Virus record (IMG/VR): IMGVR_UViG_3300031857_023573 | Span: 1 to 64,000 of that record | Direction: 5' to 3' (one strand) | Length of the DNA stretch: 64,000 nucleotides | DNA from: a virus | Lineage: Duplodnaviria; Caudoviricetes | Shown here: positions 7,493 to 56,577 of the stretch, piece by piece | How positions within the stretch are numbered: position 1 is the first letter of the stretch | How the letters are laid out: the number at the start of each line of letters is the position of its first letter | Program-made: the position numbers and the translations under genes | The notes under the pieces: generated by a model | Told to the model about the DNA's origin: nothing | Databases searched by the model: none | What the model saw: the letters and a program-made list of their open reading frames with translations, nothing else

Positions 7493-8803
7493 GTGAATTA
7501 TAATAAAGAAATGAGTAGATTGGTTAACTTAAATAGTGTTGATGATAAAATTTTAGACGAGATATTCAAAGATGATATTATCATTTATGAAGATGTTCAA
7601 GGTTCTAAAATTTGGGTTAACTCAGACTCTTCTGGGTTTACAATAAAACCGAAGTCTATTTCAAACGAACCTATCAACATGGTTGATCTTGCTATGCAAA
7701 ATTATTATAATTCTGCGGTAAGATATTTTAATACATTTGATAGCAGAATAAAGGGTCTAATGCCTAAAAATTGGTGGTTTTGTTTTGAGTATTTTCCAGA
7801 TAATCAGCCTGCAAATATTGAGTATAATAGACTTCCAAAAAATTCACTAGTACTCGCTTCTATTTGCAAAGGGGGTAAATATGAATATTCAATTGATGAA
7901 CTAAGAGAATACTCAAGATTGTTTGGTGTAGATTGCCTTCCTGTAATATTTGAGGGTAAATTAAGTGACACGATGAAAGAGGCAATTAAATACTTTCTGA
8001 ATACTTCTGAGAAGGATTTAGAGTATGTATTTGGTGAGAAATCTTTTGCATTCTTCTTCTACAAAATATTAAATCCTCAAGTTGAGGGGTCTTTTTTGAT
8101 GGATAGTGACTTTCAAAAAAACTTACAGAAAATAGTTATACAAACGTCTAGTAGTAAGTCAAATTTTGAAATTTTGAATCCACTCTATCAGAGAATCTCA
8201 AATGAGAACTCTACTGAGTTTGTGGAGGTATATACACTAATATTAGTTAGTTTTCTTAATTTCTGCCAAGGTGTAAATATTGATGATTTAAAAATCAAAG
8301 GTCAAAAAAGAGATGAGGCTTACATATATCTAATTTGTAAATTGTTTAATATGTATGTTGATGAGGTAAAAGACGATCTTCTTAATTTTGACTTCACTAT
8401 ACCTCAGTTTTTTGATAAAGAAAAGTTCAAAATAAATAAAGAACTAATATCAAATAAGTTAACCAAAGAAATTATAACCGAATCTGATAAGTTAGAATAT
8501 ATTTTTAAAGTACTTCTTGGATCACTTTCCAAAAAAAGAAAGAAACCTATTGGTGTATTTACAGACAGAACTTTAATTTTATTTAACTCTTTTATTGAAA
8601 AAATTGATAGAATACTTGACTTATACTTAAATAAGTTAAGAGAAATCGATATTACCAGAGGTGGACTTTTAGACTTTGGAGACTTCTTCGATTTAAAATT
8701 TGACAGAGATGGTTCTGGTCAGGTTTACCCAGATGTCTATGATACATTTGAAAAAGAACCAACAAGTGTAGAAAAGAAAAAAGGTAAATTTTATCCAAAG
8801 TAA
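7493..8803 (+). CDS. RNA-ligase-fold-like protein lacking the motif-I lysine
   Basis: IIIYEDVQGSKIWV aligns with ligase motif I (EKxxG) but has D for K; WFCFEYF resembles motif III; LPVIFEGKL. Confidence 0.45.
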   Translation: MNYNKEMSRLVNLNSVDDKILDEIFKDDIIIYEDVQGSKIWVNSDSSGFTIKPKSISNEPINMVDLAMQNYYNSAVRYFNTFDSRIKGLMPKNWWFCFEYFPDNQPANIEYNRLPKNSLVLASICKGGKYEYSIDELREYSRLFGVDCLPVIFEGKLSDTMKEAIKYFLNTSEKDLEYVFGEKSFAFFFYKILNPQVEGSFLMDSDFQKNLQKIVIQTSSSKSNFEILNPLYQRISNENSTEFVEVYTLILVSFLNFCQGVNIDDLKIKGQKRDEAYIYLICKLFNMYVDEVKDDLLNFDFTIPQFFDKEKFKINKELISNKLTKEIITESDKLEYIFKVLLGSLSKKRKKPIGVFTDRTLILFNSFIEKIDRILDLYLNKLREIDITRGGLLDFGDFFDLKFDRDGSGQVYPDVYDTFEKEPTSVEKKKGKFYPK

Positions 8804-12528: not shown

Positions 12529-13581
12529 ATGGATATTAAAAACAAATTTTTAGAACTAACTAAACTCACCTACATCTACGGTACAGAACACTTACTTGAA
12601 AATCACTTACCTTCTGGATTTGAAAGGGATCAATTTGGTAACTATTTTTATAAAATTGGTGACTCTCAAACTATGTTTACCTGCCATTTAGATACCGCAA
12701 CTGATAAAGTGCAAAAAGTAAAACATGTTATTAAAGGTAATATAATTTCAACTGACGGTTCCACAATTTTAGGAGCAGATGATAAGGCCGGAATGACTGT
12801 ACTTCTTTATATGATCGAAAAGAATGTACCAGGACTTTATTATTTTTTTGTGGGTGAAGAGGTAGGTTGTATTGGTTCAAACGCTGCATCTGCAATGGAC
12901 TTCTCCTCATATAAGAGGTGCATATCATTTGATAGAAGAGGATATTCATCAATCATAACACATCAACTTGGTGGAAGATGTTGTTCTGATATTTTTGCCA
13001 ATTCTATTTGTAAAGAATTAAAACCTTATAATTTATTTTATGAGCCAGACCCGACTGGAGTCGTGACAGATTCTGCTATGTTTACTAATCAAATTTCAGA
13101 ATGTACTAATATCTCAGTTGGATATTTTAAAGAACACACAAAGTCCGAATATCAAGATATTCTTTATTTGAGAAAACTCGCACAGGCTTGTGTGGAAGTT
13201 GACTGGGAATCACTTCCTTCATTAAGAGAACCTAAAATTAAAGAAGACTTTAGGTCTTGGGGACCTGCAGATGAAGAATTTATTGAAGAAGAGATAGAAG
13301 AATCTGCTAAAATTAAAGTCACAATAAATGACGTAGAGTATCTTGCCACAATAAAAAGTTCAAAAGTTAAAGAAGAGAAGTACTTTATAACCAATTGGAT
13401 CAATAGATCTTCATCATACACTGGGTTCAAAGAAGTTGAATGGGATGGAAAAAGTTGTTATCTCCTATATGATAATTCTTACAAAGAGTATATTGGCGAG
13501 CGTGAAGAGTTAATTCATGTCATTGATAATTTGTGTGATATTTCAATACACGATTTGAATATTATAAAAAAGTTTAAATGA
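12529..13581 (+). CDS. M28/M20-family zinc peptidase-like protein
   Basis: CHLDT, LGADDKAG, GEEVGCIGS, FDRRG, TDSA, NISVGYFKEHT. Confidence 0.8.
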   Translation: MDIKNKFLELTKLTYIYGTEHLLENHLPSGFERDQFGNYFYKIGDSQTMFTCHLDTATDKVQKVKHVIKGNIISTDGSTILGADDKAGMTVLLYMIEKNVPGLYYFFVGEEVGCIGSNAASAMDFSSYKRCISFDRRGYSSIITHQLGGRCCSDIFANSICKELKPYNLFYEPDPTGVVTDSAMFTNQISECTNISVGYFKEHTKSEYQDILYLRKLAQACVEVDWESLPSLREPKIKEDFRSWGPADEEFIEEEIEESAKIKVTINDVEYLATIKSSKVKEEKYFITNWINRSSSYTGFKEVEWDGKSCYLLYDNSYKEYIGEREELIHVIDNLCDISIHDLNIIKKFK

Positions 13582-15504: not shown

Positions 15505-16005
15505 ATGAAGGAAATAGAAGAAAATGATGATCCAATTTATCTCTTAATTAGGGAACAAGTCAAGGACATTAGTACTGAAAAGCTTTCTGATCAAGTTGAT
15601 CAAACACCTAGCTATATAGAAACTGAGAAACAACTAGTTTATATTTGGCTTAGATTGTATGTTAAAGATGAAGTTGAAGATATTAAAGAAGGCGACAATA
15701 TTTATATAACCTATTCAGCGACTGGTGAGAAATTACAGTCAAAGTTTATTTGTTTTGGTAAGAAAAACTCAATTCGTGACGCTGAGTCAGAAGATCAGAT
15801 TCAAATGAGTCAAGAAGATGATCCAAAGTGTTTAATACTCATGGTGAATGAAGAAACAATTCAGACCGGTGATGATATTCCTTTTATTCGATCACTTTTT
15901 AAAATTTCTAGACACTATGAGTTTCAAGTTTATAGAAGAGAAGAGCTAATATTTATAAATCAAAGAACTGGTGAGACTATACAGTATTATGATTGTGATT
16001 TTTAA
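15505..16005 (+). CDS. Hypothetical protein
   Basis: ORF upstream of polymerase. Confidence 0.7.
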   Translation: MKEIEENDDPIYLLIREQVKDISTEKLSDQVDQTPSYIETEKQLVYIWLRLYVKDEVEDIKEGDNIYITYSATGEKLQSKFICFGKKNSIRDAESEDQIQMSQEDDPKCLILMVNEETIQTGDDIPFIRSLFKISRHYEFQVYRREELIFINQRTGETIQYYDCDF

Positions 16006-16068: not shown

Positions 16069-17610
16069 GTGCTAGTAGATACTCAATATTTAATCAATAC
16101 AAGAAAGTTAGTAGTTAGTTATGTTGATAAAACCGGTGATATTAAATTAAAATATTATGACTGGCAGAATCCTCTTAAATATGTAACTTGTGAAGATAAT
16201 GACCTTCAAAGACATCCTGATTTTAAGTCTTGGGATGGAAAAAATGTTAAACAGATCGAAGTCAATCATCCTGATAGATACGCAGTTTATGAGTTCTTAG
16301 ATGCTCTGCCGGATAAAGAAAAAGAGGAAATTTTTGAATTCAATCTACCAAAGATTTTTTTCATAGATATTGAGACTGAGATAATCGATGGATTTCCTGA
16401 AGCTGCTGATATCAAAGATCCAAATGGAAATGTCACTAAAGAAGGAGCAGCTACTCAAGTTCTCTCAATTTCAATTGTATATGACGATAAGATAATTCTT
16501 CTTGGATTAAAAGATATGCCTCAAGATATGCAAGATCGTATTTTAAATAATACTAATAAGTATTTTGAGAAATCTAAAGTTGAATATAAATTCAAATACA
16601 TCAAATACGAAGATGAATTTGATATGATGTATAATTTCTTTTACAAGATGGTTCCTAAAATGCCTCTTATTACAGGTTGGAACTTTTTAAACTATGACTG
16701 GCTATACTTAGTAAATAGAGCAAGAAAGATTACAAAGTGGGTTAATGGTAAAGAGATAAAAATAGACCCCGCAGTATCCTCATTCACCAAAAGAATGAAT
16801 AAAGTTTGGTCAACTGAGTATGAAGTTCCCGCTCATAGAATGATTTTTGATTACATGCAACTTTATGAGATCTGTGATACATCTATTAAAGTTAAAGAAA
16901 GTTCTTCGTTGGACTTTGTTTCTAATAAATTAGTTGGAGTGGACAAGATTAAATATACTGGCTCTCTTCAGAAATTATATGAAGATGACTTTGAGACCTT
17001 TATGTACTATAACGCGGTTGACTCTGTTCTTGTTCAGAAAATACATGAGGCTAGAAATTATATTTCAATTATTTTCGCGATTTCTGCCCTTGCTAAAATT
17101 CGTGTAGTTGATATTGTTTCACAAATGAATAATGCTCTTGGTTCACTTGCCATTACAGAGGGAGTCTTGAGGAATAGATTCCGTGACATGGAGAATATCA
17201 TCTTGTTTAAAGATGAAAATGCTGTAAGAGGTAGTGAGTCTGGAATCGCAGGCGGATGGGTTAAAGATCCAGTTGTTGGAATGAACAAGTGGGTTTGCAT
17301 CTACGATTTTGCCTCACTTTATCCCACAACTCAGTTACAGTTTTTCATAGCTCCTGAGACTTTTGTTGGTGTAAAAACTGATCAGGAAAATGATTACTGT
17401 TTTAATGGCAATCAAAGGATCAAAATAGATTCAGAAAAACATGTTGTTTGTGTTAATGGTGTTGTTTTCGAGAAGAGATATTCACCAACTTTAAAAATGC
17501 TTGATGATGTCTATGCAGACAGAAAGAAGAATAAAAAGATTATGATGTCTAAAAAAGAAGAATATAAGGCAGTCATAGATGAAATAAAAAGATTAGAATC
17601 CGAATTATAA
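16069..17610 (+). CDS. Family-B DNA polymerase, N-terminal subunit (3'-5' exonuclease, motif A, first fingers helix); split gene
   Basis: FIDIETE (ExoI), TGWNFLNYD (ExoII), YNAVDS (ExoIII), IYDFASLYPT (motif A); stops after YADRKKNKK helix; no motif B KxxxNSxYG or motif C YxDTDS. Confidence 0.88.
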   Translation: MLVDTQYLINTRKLVVSYVDKTGDIKLKYYDWQNPLKYVTCEDNDLQRHPDFKSWDGKNVKQIEVNHPDRYAVYEFLDALPDKEKEEIFEFNLPKIFFIDIETEIIDGFPEAADIKDPNGNVTKEGAATQVLSISIVYDDKIILLGLKDMPQDMQDRILNNTNKYFEKSKVEYKFKYIKYEDEFDMMYNFFYKMVPKMPLITGWNFLNYDWLYLVNRARKITKWVNGKEIKIDPAVSSFTKRMNKVWSTEYEVPAHRMIFDYMQLYEICDTSIKVKESSSLDFVSNKLVGVDKIKYTGSLQKLYEDDFETFMYYNAVDSVLVQKIHEARNYISIIFAISALAKIRVVDIVSQMNNALGSLAITEGVLRNRFRDMENIILFKDENAVRGSESGIAGGWVKDPVVGMNKWVCIYDFASLYPTTQLQFFIAPETFVGVKTDQENDYCFNGNQRIKIDSEKHVVCVNGVVFEKRYSPTLKMLDDVYADRKKNKKIMMSKKEEYKAVIDEIKRLESEL

Positions 17611-20193: not shown

Positions 20194-20565
20194 TTATCTC
20201 TTTTTCTTATCTTCTATTGACTTTTCAATTTTTTTAGCAATAGCCTTTTCCCAACCTTCAATCTTTTTATTCTTATTTCTATCCGCTAAATCAGGCCTTT
20301 TCAATCCAGATTTTTTATATGAAACAGGTTTATCCTTTTTAGATTCATTACTATCTTCTTCTTCACGCATCTCATCAGAATCAAGTACTTGTGGTTCTGG
20401 TTGAGTAGATGTTTCATCGTTGAATTCACCCTCTAAATCAGAGTCTTTTGTTATTTTTTCTTCAGGTGATTCAATATTCTCGATTTCATCTAAGTATTCT
20501 CTGTCTTTTGGTTGCTCTAGTTCTGGTGATAAGAAAAATGTTTCAAATCTTTTAAGGTGCCTCAT
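20194..20565 (-). CDS. Acidic low-complexity protein with N-terminal tag (MRHLKRFETF)
   Basis: ORF; TAATATATA at 20592-20600. Confidence 0.75.
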   Translation of the reverse strand: MRHLKRFETFFLSPELEQPKDREYLDEIENIESPEEKITKDSDLEGEFNDETSTQPEPQVLDSDEMREEEDSNESKKDKPVSYKKSGLKRPDLADRNKNKKIEGWEKAIAKKIEKSIEDKKKR

Positions 20566-20639: not shown

Positions 20640-21839
20640 ATGAAAATTTTAAATTTCTTTGACTTTATTTTTGAGAATTTTAAAACTATACAAGTGCCTT
20701 TTCAGTACTGTGAAGAGTTTGAATCTTTGATAAATCAAATAAATAATCCAATTTCTGGGGCTTTTATGAATTTACGACTAAAACCCACCGATATTTCACT
20801 TATTAATATTGGAGATCAAGATGATTTTGTGACATTTACTACATCGACAAAGCTATCACAACATTTCAAATCAGAAGATGAAAAGACACTTAGAACACTT
20901 ATATCACCTTTATCTAGAAACACCGAAATTTACTCAAAGAATAGAACTTCGATAAAAATAGGCAGATTGATTAGAAAATTATTTGGGTCAAAATTCTCTG
21001 ATTCGGAGATTGAAAAATTTGTAAATCAATACAAATCTATTGTAGATAAAAAACTACTCAAATTTGAATTGTGGGATGGATATAAAATTCAAAATGGATA
21101 CTGTTCTAAGAATTACACTTATGATGCCCCTAGTTCTAACCCACTTTTAAATTCTTGTATGAACGATGAATTACATCTCATAGACTTTTATCAATATGCT
21201 CCTGTGAAATTATTAGTGTTACTAAATAATGAAGGTCACATTTTTGGAAGATCGTTAATATGGCAGACTAATAGAGGAACATTTATGGATAGAGTTTATG
21301 TAGCTTTTGATTCTGATTATTACAAATTTACAGATTGGGCTACAAAAAATAACATAATTTATAAATCAAAGAATCAAAGTGGACCTTTAATTGACTATGT
21401 TGTAGGCGGAAAAACTACCTGGTTTCCAATGAAAGTAGAACTTAAATTCAATATAGACGAATATAGTAGAGAGGATTTTACTGATACAGTTAGGGATATT
21501 CCGTATATGGATACCTTTATTTATGGTCAGAAGAATATTCTAACTAATTATGAGCCACTTGAGGATAAATATTATATATTGACTGATACTGATGGATATC
21601 CTTTAGAAGTTATACCACATTTTGATATTAAGGGTCGAAGAATTCGCCAAGATGAACTAGATGATTATGAGTGGTCAAATACTCAGAAAGGATGGATACA
21701 TGCAAAAGACGGGTGTTATGTACAAGCAGTTCAAGATTTTTTATCTTTTGACTATTTAAAAGACCCTGTTAATGGATTCACACGAAAGCCAGGAACTAAT
21801 CCGATATCTCCGAATACTTGGATTAAAAATGTAAATTAA
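20640..21839 (+). CDS. Hypothetical protein, NSCM..GRS.IW..DR.Y..PYMDTF domain, N-terminal tag
   Basis: Clear paralogue of 22681-24993; TATAAATA at 20631-20638. Confidence 0.75.
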   Translation: MKILNFFDFIFENFKTIQVPFQYCEEFESLINQINNPISGAFMNLRLKPTDISLINIGDQDDFVTFTTSTKLSQHFKSEDEKTLRTLISPLSRNTEIYSKNRTSIKIGRLIRKLFGSKFSDSEIEKFVNQYKSIVDKKLLKFELWDGYKIQNGYCSKNYTYDAPSSNPLLNSCMNDELHLIDFYQYAPVKLLVLLNNEGHIFGRSLIWQTNRGTFMDRVYVAFDSDYYKFTDWATKNNIIYKSKNQSGPLIDYVVGGKTTWFPMKVELKFNIDEYSREDFTDTVRDIPYMDTFIYGQKNILTNYEPLEDKYYILTDTDGYPLEVIPHFDIKGRRIRQDELDDYEWSNTQKGWIHAKDGCYVQAVQDFLSFDYLKDPVNGFTRKPGTNPISPNTWIKNVN

Positions 21840-21850
21840 TATATACCCAT

Positions 21851-33401: not shown

Positions 33402-33420
33402 AATTGTATATATTATGAGT

Positions 33421-54044: not shown

Positions 54045-54121
54045 AATATAAATATAACGATTTTCTTTAAAATTAAGAAATTTTATTTTTAAGAAATTAT
54101 ATATTATTTTGGAAACTTATT

Positions 54122-54148
54122 AAAAAAACCCAGTCAATTGACTGGGTT
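54122..54148 (-). terminator. Intrinsic terminator after tRNA
   Basis: Minus strand AACCCAGT-CAATTG-ACTGGGTT then T-run. Confidence 0.85.
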
Positions 54149-54153
54149 ACTAG

Positions 54154-54249
54154 TTGCGGGAAAAGGACTCGAACCTTTGACCTTTGGGTTATTTCTTCCT
54201 TGATAATTCAAAAATGAGCCCAACGAGCTACCAACTGCTCCACCCCGCA
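54154..54249 (-). tRNA. tRNA-fMet (CAT) interrupted by a 23-nt anticodon-loop insert
   Basis: TGCGGGG TG GAGC AGTTGGTA GCTC G TTGGG CT CAT [TTTTGAATTATCAAGGAAGAAAT] AA CCCAA AGGTC AAAGG TTCGAGT CCTTT TCCCGCA A. Initiator hallmarks GGG/CCC anticodon stem and A11:U24. CCA not encoded. Confidence 0.88.
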
Positions 54250-54367
54250 ATATTTATATATTAATATTGATTTCGAGTTTTTAAATTTATGAACAATAAA
54301 TAATAATTTATATGAAAATTTTCAATAATTGGATATCAAATGAAGATATTTTATAAAATATTTTTCA

Positions 54368-54771: not shown

Positions 54772-55362
54772 TTGATGATTAGAATACTTGGAAATATACC
54801 AAAAGGTGAATTTGGTCTCGCTTGCTCTGGTGGTGTGGACTCTATGGCTGTTGCCAATTTTTTATTAAACGGTGGTTGGGAGCCAAATATTTTATATTTT
54901 AACCATAATACTGAACATGGTCAACTTGCTGAAGAGTTTGTAACTAATTATTGTAAAACACATAATTTAAAATTACATGTTGATCGTACAGACCTTACTC
55001 CTAAGTCAAATAAAGAAAAGATTTGGAGTGATTTAAGATACGAATTTTTCTCTAAGTTTGATTTTCCAGTAATTACTTGCCACCATTTAGATGATTGTGT
55101 CGAGACATATCTCTTTTCATGTCTTAGGGGATTTCAATCAGTTATTCCATATTCTAAGGGTAATGTAATTAGACCTTTTTTACTTAATGAAAAGTCAGTA
55201 TTTTACGACTGGTGTTTACATAAATCGGTTCCTTTTATTGAAGATGAATCTAATTTAAATGTCAATTTCTCAAGAAACAGAATTCGTCATAATATTGTTC
55301 CAGAGGCACTTACGGTAAACCCTGGATTAAAGACGGTTGTTAAGAAAATGATTAGTATATAA
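54772..55362 (+). CDS. tilS: TilS/MesJ-like PP-loop ATPase (tRNA-Ile lysidine synthetase catalytic domain only)
   Basis: ACSGGVDSM, FNHN, RYEFF, TCHHLDDCVET, VIRPFL, EDESN, RNRIRH; lacks C-terminal tRNA-binding domains. Confidence 0.8.
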   Translation: MMIRILGNIPKGEFGLACSGGVDSMAVANFLLNGGWEPNILYFNHNTEHGQLAEEFVTNYCKTHNLKLHVDRTDLTPKSNKEKIWSDLRYEFFSKFDFPVITCHHLDDCVETYLFSCLRGFQSVIPYSKGNVIRPFLLNEKSVFYDWCLHKSVPFIEDESNLNVNFSRNRIRHNIVPEALTVNPGLKTVVKKMISI

Positions 55363-55741: not shown

Positions 55742-55816
55742 AGTTTATATATTAGATTTCTTCGATATTAAACTTTCGGTTTAAATATTAATAAAAATAA
55801 AAACTAATTTAAAAAA

Positions 55817-56236
55817 ATGATTAAACAAGGTAGTAAAGTTAAGGCTCACTATACAGGAAGACTTAATGATAATGATGTTTTTGATACATCTATCCAAGAT
55901 GGAAGAGATCCTCTTGAATTCACAATCGGTGAGGGTACTCTCTTACCAGCTTTTGAAAACGAACTTTTAGGTCTTGCAACAGGAGATAAAAAGACTTTTG
56001 AACTTACTTCAGATGATGCTTACGGTCCTTATAGAGATGACCTCAGACTAACTGTTCCTAGAACAAATGTCCCACAAGGTGTTGAAGTAGGTCAAAGTTT
56101 GCAAGGAAATTTCAATAATGAAATGATCACCTTCATGGTGAGACAGGTAAATGAAGATAACGTTATTGTTGATGCTAATCATCCTTTAGCTGGTAAGGCA
56201 CTTATTTTCGACGTAGAAATCGTTGAAATCGACTAA
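55817..56236 (+). CDS. slyD: FKBP-type peptidyl-prolyl isomerase (SlyD-like, no His-rich tail)
   Basis: VKAHYTGRL, PLEFTIG, AYG, VDANHPLAGKALIFDVEIV. Confidence 0.9.
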   Translation: MIKQGSKVKAHYTGRLNDNDVFDTSIQDGRDPLEFTIGEGTLLPAFENELLGLATGDKKTFELTSDDAYGPYRDDLRLTVPRTNVPQGVEVGQSLQGNFNNEMITFMVRQVNEDNVIVDANHPLAGKALIFDVEIVEID

Positions 56237-56577
56237 ACGAACTTTTTATGAATTTTCGAATTCTGAAACCAAGTATTGTTCTTGGAAAGAAGTTCAAAAT
56301 TATTGTGTGATTGTTCACAAATTTCTCTAAATTTTATCAAATCATAAGCGGTGAGTCTAAACCATTCACCGCTTATTTTTTTTTCACAAAAATGTCTGTG
56401 TAATTTAGCTTCAATTTGGGTTCCCCATTTAGATTCAAAAAAATCTACTAATTCTAGATCAGAGGCATTTCCAGTTTTTATTTCTTTAATTCTATTTTGA
56501 GGATTTCTTTTTGTATATCCTATTTTATAACATGTGTCACCTTCTATAGTCGAGGAAATTAGATATACTTTATACAT
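56233..56577 (-). CDS. GIY-YIG nuclease, T5orf172/MUG113-like
   Basis: VYLI..YKIGYTK..RIKEIKTGN..E..LH..F..GEWF. Confidence 0.8.
   Translation of the reverse strand: MYKVYLISSTIEGDTCYKIGYTKRNPQNRIKEIKTGNASDLELVDFFESKWGTQIEAKLHRHFCEKKISGEWFRLTAYDLIKFREICEQSHNNFELLSKNNTWFQNSKIHKKFV

Follow-up and report, generated by a model that had tools for sequence, protein, structure and literature searches.

An interrupted initiator-type tRNA gene in a freshwater phage: a candidate 23-nt mini-intron in the anticodon loop

The window (the whole stretch of DNA analysed, 64,000 nt) is phage DNA of 29–30% G+C, encoding both ribonucleotide reductase subunits, a DNA polymerase, helicases, DNA methylases, a sigma factor, GreA, and a tail-fibre-like protein. 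An interrupted initiator-type tRNA gene lies on its minus strand at positions 54154–54249, and the gene adjoining this tRNA is also present on a 225-kb contig. Rfam model RF00005 matches the tRNA end to end with 54.3 bits (gathering score 29), the anticodon loop holding 27 nt where the model expects 4. With bacterial default settings ARAGORN finds no tRNAs across the whole 64 kb; in intron mode, a check proposed in the preliminary description of this DNA, it recovers a tRNA-Met(cat) with a 23-nt intron at 54154–54249.

The exons were delimited with Rfam and ARAGORN. The 5' exon (54214–54249, minus strand) comprises tRNA positions 1–36, i.e., the acceptor strand, the D arm, the 5' strand of the anticodon stem, and C32 U33 C34 A35 U36. 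The 3' exon (54154–54190, minus strand) comprises positions 37–73, including A37 and A38, the 3' strand of the anticodon stem, the variable loop, the T arm, the acceptor strand, and the discriminator A; CCA is absent from the encoded 3' end. The full-length Rfam match agrees with the earlier view that every arm of a tRNA-fMet is intact, and the identity itself stands in part. As read from the sequence, the tRNA body has a CAU loop, three G:C pairs at 29–31:39–41 (G29–G31:C39–C41), and an A11:U24 pair, which we take to be a mark of bacterial initiator tRNAs. Position 1:72, however, is a Watson–Crick U1-A72 pair and not the bacterial initiator mismatch, and the gene is therefore called initiator-type rather than plain initiator. 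The weakness of this pair, or a transcription start at G2, could replace the mismatch.

The insert (54191–54213, minus strand) is a mini-intron candidate delimited by sequence, ARAGORN intron mode, and folds, and its 23 nt are exactly those first described. Taking them out restores the canonical anticodon loop CUCAUAA, and AU at both ends leaves the junction ambiguous by 2 nt, at 34/35, 35/36, or 36/37, as had been noted. When the anticodon arm is folded at minimum energy, U36 and insert nucleotides 1–6 pair with insert nucleotides 11–17 to give 7 bp closed by the loop AUUA. A35 stands opposite an A, C34 and U33 are paired with insert G19 and A20, and the 3' junction falls in a 5-nt single strand made of the last three insert bases with A37 and A38. 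The hairpin is weak (-2.8 kcal/mol, z = -1.5) and no better than shuffles, 18 of 200 being equally stable. No second or near copy of the insert occurs in the window or in any fetched locus with up to five mismatches allowed, and its sequence is absent from IMG/VR.

Known intron classes do not accommodate the insert. For group I introns, a P1–P9 core, a length of roughly 200 nt or more, and the boundaries U(-1) and G(omega) were taken as criteria. The insert has only 23 nt, no ribozyme core, and no match to an Rfam intron family (Intron_gpI), and the boundary bases at the three possible junctions are C/A, A/A, or U/U. Being far too short, it is not self-splicing. A bulge-helix-bulge, defined as two 3-nt bulges separated by a 4-bp helix and usually placed at 37/38, could be drawn neither from folds nor by manual placement for any junction from 34/35 to 36/37, in line with the initial failure to find a clean one. 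The insert falls with unclassified phage anticodon-loop inserts, since it is exact, leaves a canonical loop on removal, has too little size or structure to splice itself, and is conserved in relatives. Removal of the 23 nt from the RNA is predicted.

The TAATATATA/TATAAATA motif reported directly upstream of the gene is present. TAATATATA, a phage promoter-like motif recognised by over-representation and spacing, lies at 54255–54263 (minus strand), 5 nt upstream of tRNA position 1. It has 24 copies in the window against 3.2 expected (eight-fold), and none of 100 shuffles reaches 24. The copies are intergenic, for example at 2111–2119, 21837–21845, 33407–33415, and 55746–55754, and in six cases an ATG follows 4–6 nt after the motif. 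This spacing suggests leaderless mRNAs from a class of phage promoters with a start 5–7 nt after TAATATATA. Because the spacing at the tRNA matches that at the leaderless genes, the primary tRNA transcript should start at or beside the mature 5' end (about +1). An intrinsic terminator, identified by fold and pattern, begins 5 nt after the discriminator (54120–54148, minus strand) and has a 9-bp stem, a 4-nt loop, and a T run. Its energy of -14.4 kcal/mol (z = -4.45) is reached by none of 200 shuffles, so the gene has its own terminator as first described. With a promoter motif at the tRNA start and a terminator just past the discriminator, the interrupted tRNA gene is a compact transcription unit of its own. 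A second terminator-like match within the tRNA (54217–54229 with the T run of the insert) was judged to be due to chance.

The insert is real in DNA. Contigs from four independent, unrelated runs (lake, freshwater, estuary) span it without an indel or a listed difference in the tRNA, and carry SNPs in the flanks, which answers the early concern about misassembly. Another 11 contigs, obtained independently of these, contain the identical 96 nt, and the insert is the same in all 12 copies. Runs bearing the locus come from 15 studies and carry the metagenome labels lake, freshwater, estuary, and 'fungus'; no RNA run is among those listed for the 1.8-kb region or for the 201-nt gene. The very high read depth across the 5' half of the tRNA is due to initiator tRNAs of other organisms, whose contigs diverge exactly at the anticodon.

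Syntenic loci were reached through homologues of the two small ORFs flanking the tRNA, neither of which has relatives in IMG/VR. The interrupted tRNA is shared by the lineages L102, L103, and the group L104/L105/L107/L108. Their flanking genes have 68–75% DNA identity to those of the window, and the neighbouring 121-aa protein is 58–64% identical; their intergenic DNA is more alike than the genes (88–95% identical). Among these diverged relatives the unit from transcription start to terminator has no variable site in 130 (36 + 23 + 37 + 34), against 23 of 228 sites in the adjacent intergenic DNA (Fisher p = 2e-5), the nearest mismatch being just 4 nt upstream of tRNA +1. No site varies in the 5' exon (0/36) or the 3' exon (0/37), the two together (0/73) giving p = 0.001. 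The 34 terminator sites are invariant too, only the length of the T run differing, and the 23 insert sites taken alone are invariant without reaching significance (p about 0.1). The unit is thus maintained, as had been supposed, and shows none of the random arm decay named as the sign of a pseudogene. Since the gene is intact while its surroundings have diverged, a decaying pseudogene is disfavoured; the pattern points to purifying selection on the interrupted gene and makes a neutral pseudogene unlikely. Of the earlier suggestion to look in relatives for the same insert with covariation, only the first part is borne out: the insert is shared, but it never varies and so offers no covariation.

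L102 has an extra 269-aa ORF without a Pfam match between the tRNA cassette and the 121-aa gene (L102:2145–2954), and in L103 (2669 region) a deletion runs from the terminator stem into the downstream gene and leaves a 103-aa product.

Other relatives carry an uninterrupted initiator-type tRNA(CAU) in the same slot, on the opposite strand and behind a TAATATATA-like motif. These are L098 (1629–1703) and L099/L100 (L099:2096–2168), and a terminator follows the L099 tRNA. Because L098 and L099 hold the uninterrupted version there, the job of the slot is the supply of an initiator-type tRNA. As judged from these loci, the slot is a conserved place for a phage initiator-type tRNA, the cassette having been swapped and inverted among phages. 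Compared with the L099 tRNA, the exons of the window show compensatory differences at 28:42 and 49–51:63–65. The uninterrupted initiators of the relatives are mismatched at 1:72 (U1xU72 or A1xA72), and the more distant IMG/VR relatives L001, L002, and L008 have uninterrupted initiator-like tRNAs.

Similar inserts were sought with a pattern for initiator tRNAs carrying 5–35 extra bases in the anticodon loop. Two search patterns found no interrupted initiator tRNA in IMG/VR, and in a genome collection of 185,579 species the pattern matched only artefacts (N runs and duplicated segments). Metagenomes gave nine matches, four of which are real after removal of artefacts and one chance match, i.e., L081 (this phage), L084, L087, and L082. 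L087, at 32% G+C, has an insert of 26 nt, and its gene has its own terminator. L082 (7583–7677) is a bacterial contig of 70% G+C whose full initiator tRNA has a 23-nt insert at 33/34 with U in front and G as its last base; this insert is perhaps a group I remnant, to judge from its position and boundaries. At L086:831–1024 a normal tRNA-fMet precedes an incomplete copy that bears a related insert. The apparent initiator-tRNA inserts of L090–L097 in the genome collection and of L083, L088, and L089 are N runs or duplicated tRNA segments. The duplicated segments lie at tandem tRNA-fMet genes, and both kinds of artefact call for caution with automated intron calls.

The L084 match extends into L113, a phage-like contig of 59 kb in JGI with a 127-kb version in ENA, which is rich in small ORFs and has genes of the HNH, sigma-70 region 2, and IF1-like kinds. 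Of its approximately 19 tRNAs, six have 16–23-nt hairpin inserts in the anticodon loop, and about 13 uninterrupted ones lie beside them. The interrupted set comprises tRNA-fMet (L113:10573–10668), tRNA-Glu (12704–12791), tRNA-Asn (15700–15794), tRNA-Lys (16736–16829), tRNA-Arg (17094–17189), and a tRNA for Ile or Thr (20262–20353), five of the six scoring 45–53 bits in Rfam. Each insert has a hairpin of 3–8 bp, with a four-base loop in five of six. The L113 initiator tRNA has the bacterial C1xA72 mismatch and resembles that of the window in layout: in both, the insert follows CAU, the hairpin starts from nucleotide 36 and has a 4-nt loop, C34 pairs with a G of the insert, the 3' junction lies in a 5-nt single strand, and AU stands at both ends. 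Junction 34/35 fits seven of the eight inserts compared, the L113 tRNA-Arg fitting only 36/37 or 37/38. That six of about 19 tRNAs in one phage-like contig should be dead is implausible. None of the L084 proteins searched has a relative in IMG/VR, and the ORF beside the L084 initiator tRNA matches only itself in the protein database. After the interrupted initiator tRNA of L084 there is a G+C-richer, structured-looking stretch of 240 nt (L084:8560–8800) with no Rfam match.

The ORFs of the window were searched with Pfam, PHROGs, or NCBIfam, and three of them also against PDB sequences. No member of the RtcB, Rnl, Pnk, EndA, HEPN, or PIN families is found among the approximately 60 ORFs of the 64-kb window, and searches of Pfam, PHROGs, NCBIfam, and PDB sequences lend no support to the ORF at 7493–8803 as an RNA ligase. 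A 196-aa protein consisting only of the TilS catalytic N-domain is encoded at 54772–55362 on the plus strand (Pfam PF01171, 4.8e-29; NCBIfam TIGR02432, 107 bits, cut-off 93.6). Its gene and the tRNA gene are divergently oriented and about 520 nt apart, and the interrupted tRNA is the only tRNA nearby. In IMG/VR relatives the TilS-N gene lies inside tRNA arrays, in some directly followed by an Ile2-type tRNA(CAU). The TilS domain acts on C34 of CAU tRNAs, which for the insert is context only. A small T5orf172/MUG113 (GIY-YIG-like) gene, conserved in relatives, lies 2 kb from the tRNA (56233–56577, minus strand), and its product could be a free-standing homing-type nuclease.

In the textbook view, tRNA introns of bacteria splice themselves as ribozymes, and tRNA splicing by proteins is a trait of archaea and eukaryotes. 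The preliminary description followed this in describing bacterial tRNA introns as large group I ribozymes, a statement that omits the 'enigmatic introns' of Lak megaphage tRNAs (Devoto et al., 2019; PMC6784885). The authors of that study gave no mechanism, did not demonstrate splicing, and wrote that they knew of no earlier report of introns in phage tRNAs. Like the insert of the window, Lak introns lie in the anticodon loop in large phages of bacteria, cannot be classified with Rfam, have no known splicing mechanism, and are identical across samples wherever the same insert recurs (PMC6784885). They differ in size and structure, a tRNA-Tyr example having approximately 93 nt and one intron being predicted to be tRNA-shaped, whereas the insert of the window has 23 nt and a weak hairpin. 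They also differ in origin, since Lak is a gut Prevotella phage and the window belongs to a freshwater T4-like phage with the insert in an initiator-type tRNA. Full-text searches of the literature found no description of inserts of about 20 nt with hairpins in phage tRNAs, and the Lak introns are the only precedent found in print.

Group I introns of tRNA-fMet interrupt the same type of gene in the same loop, and either kind of insert can leave the gene phenotypically intact. Group I introns, however, are ribozymes at least about 200 nt long, with a U preceding the 5' splice site and a G as the last intron base, and their classical site in tRNA-fMet is 33/34 (fMet.2Ug), whereas the 23 nt of the window lie at 34/35–36/37 with no core and no such boundaries. 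Archaeal and eukaryal introns, removed by EndA/TSEN with RtcB or Trl1 (PMC4090602), are likewise short, show pairing between anticodon and insert, and have a single-stranded 3' junction; they need an endonuclease and a ligase, as removal of the insert of the window would. Unlike them, the insert has no bulge-helix-bulge and is not at 37/38, and it sits in an A11:U24 tRNA of a phage with bacterial-type genes and no EndA-like gene in the window.

T4 Pnk/Rnl1 repairs anticodon-loop breaks made by PrrC. Its sealing chemistry is exactly what a two-cut excision from the anticodon loop needs and is typical of T4-like and jumbo phages, but it is single-nick repair, not known for segment removal, and for the phage of the window the parallel is only predicted. 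We know of no bacterial or phage endonuclease that excises such a segment. RtcB, Rnl1, Rnl2, and Pnk are documented in jumbo phages and are common in large phages (Iyer et al., 2021; PMC7824862), and a 2026 review of jumbo phages brings up phage tRNAs and RNA ligases solely where it deals with repair.

Given the conservation under divergence, the uninterrupted tRNA in the slot of relatives, and the six L113 cases, a functional processed RNA is the most likely product. The favoured reading, to which we attach about even confidence on the evidence of sequence, is that of a functional initiator-type tRNA gene from whose transcript the 23 nt would be cut out by protein and the ends sealed by an RNA ligase. 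The start of transcription, the excision, the ligation, and the enzymes acting are what we infer, as follows. From the phage promoter the transcript would begin at tRNA position 1 or beside it, and it would run to the terminator, ending just past the discriminator. The insert would pair with the anticodon, C34 and U36 being base-paired, and form a short hairpin, so that the 3' junction stays unpaired within A/U-rich sequence. A host or phage protein endonuclease would cut both junctions, and re-sealing of the loop to CUCAUAA would fall to an RNA ligase such as large phages commonly encode (Rnl with Pnk, or RtcB). Trimming of the 3' end, addition of CCA, and charging would then follow.

This excision of a mini-intron is favoured by the canonical tRNA body, the exact restoration of the loop, the dedicated unit, the presence of the insert in independent DNA, the signs of selection, the uninterrupted slot tRNA of relatives, the compensatory exon changes, the recurrence in L113, and the RNA ligases of large phages. 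Points against it are a hairpin no more stable than shuffles, the lack of a bulge-helix-bulge and of a common splice position, no ligase or endonuclease family among the ORFs of the window, the p value of about 0.1 for the insert alone, and the U-A pair at 1:72 where the initiators of relatives are mismatched. Identical cassettes in diverged backgrounds could also come from recent lateral spread rather than selection.

An unlikely alternative is that the unspliced 96-nt RNA is itself the product, a look-alike of initiator tRNA with its anticodon hidden in a hairpin, serving as a decoy or sponge or as a nuclease-proof stored form. A VapC-type or other anticodon nuclease, formyltransferase, IF2, or IF3 could be the target of such a decoy. 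The invariance of the entire unit including the insert and the sequestration of the anticodon by pairing would suit this role, and the relatives do tolerate small hairpins in the D and variable loops of tRNAs. Known anticodon nucleases target Lys (PrrC), Asn (colicin E5), Arg (colicin D), and fMet (VapC) tRNAs, and the interrupted set of L113 (fMet, Lys, Asn, Arg, Glu, Ile/Thr) overlaps with these targets. Yet a decoy needs no perfect CUCAUAA on removal, and the flanks of the insert restore the loop every time; relatives have an ordinary initiator-type tRNA in the same slot; and a stoichiometric decoy would presumably be inefficient against a catalytic nuclease.

Rather improbable, too, is an insert that acts at the level of DNA and has no function in RNA. 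The tRNA would be dead, or dispensable since the host supplies initiator tRNA, and the cassette would have spread by recombination or endonuclease-driven conversion; the insert could immunise the conserved anticodon-arm DNA against a nuclease that cuts uninterrupted tRNA-fMet genes. An identical cassette amid flanking genes of only 68–75% identity, with intergenic DNA more alike than the genes, would be expected from such spread, and the slot is mosaic, the close relative L098 having a different, inverted cassette. The nuclease-like T5orf172/MUG113 gene 2 kb away, the extra 269-aa ORF beside the cassette in L102, and the known homing into the anticodon region of tRNA-fMet genes (group I site fMet.2Ug) also fit. 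No nuclease is linked to the site, however, and the invariant block coincides with a functional unit from transcription start to terminator. Its sharp edge 4 nt upstream of tRNA +1 is unlike the smooth gradient of a conversion tract, and six dead tRNAs in L113 would have to be accepted as well.

That the insert arose in assembly or sequencing, or is what degeneration has left of a known type of intron (group I or archaeal bulge-helix-bulge), is hardly credible: same-pattern matches were artefacts throughout the genome collection and in three metagenome cases, and the 23 nt of the bacterial L082 occupy the classical group I site, preceded by U and closed by G, but the insert of the window is novel sequence without Ns or duplication, is spanned by independent assemblies, and has neither U(-1)/G(omega) at any of the three positions, nor an Intron_gpI match, nor a drawable bulge-helix-bulge. 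Explanations other than those weighed here take up a small remaining share of the probability.

Because neither the insert of the window nor those of L113 can self-splice, either infected bacteria contain an undescribed cut-and-join pathway or phages make tRNA look-alikes with another purpose. More generally, and with somewhat less than even confidence, the excision reading extends to a non-ribozyme tRNA splicing in phages or their bacterial hosts, in which a protein endonuclease would excise anticodon-loop hairpin mini-introns of 16–26 nt and a phage RNA ligase would re-seal the tRNA, that of the window being one substrate. The inserts may gate phage tRNAs or protect them against host anticodon nucleases, and if so, tRNA supply would be conditional on phage enzymes. 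Should such enzymes exist, they would offer new tools for RNA processing and perhaps mark a new layer of phage–host conflict over tRNAs; the locus is small and abundant in public lake metagenomes.

Small hairpins at other sites of phage tRNAs were seen in the IMG/VR relatives with the TilS-N gene. Most ARAGORN 'introns' in their tRNA arrays are long variable arms or overlapping calls and not inserts, and the same holds for the 98-nt Rfam matches in L004–L007. Hairpins of 10–12 nt, mostly with GAAA-type loops, do occur in tRNAs that are normally short in the variable loop. Three tRNAs (Glu, Ile, and Asn) have them in the variable region and two (Gly and Cys, both missed by ARAGORN) in the D loop, the hairpin-bearing tRNAs lying at L008:1215–1301, L008:8320–8405, L003:6772–6858, L003:1322–1404, and L003:7022–7104.
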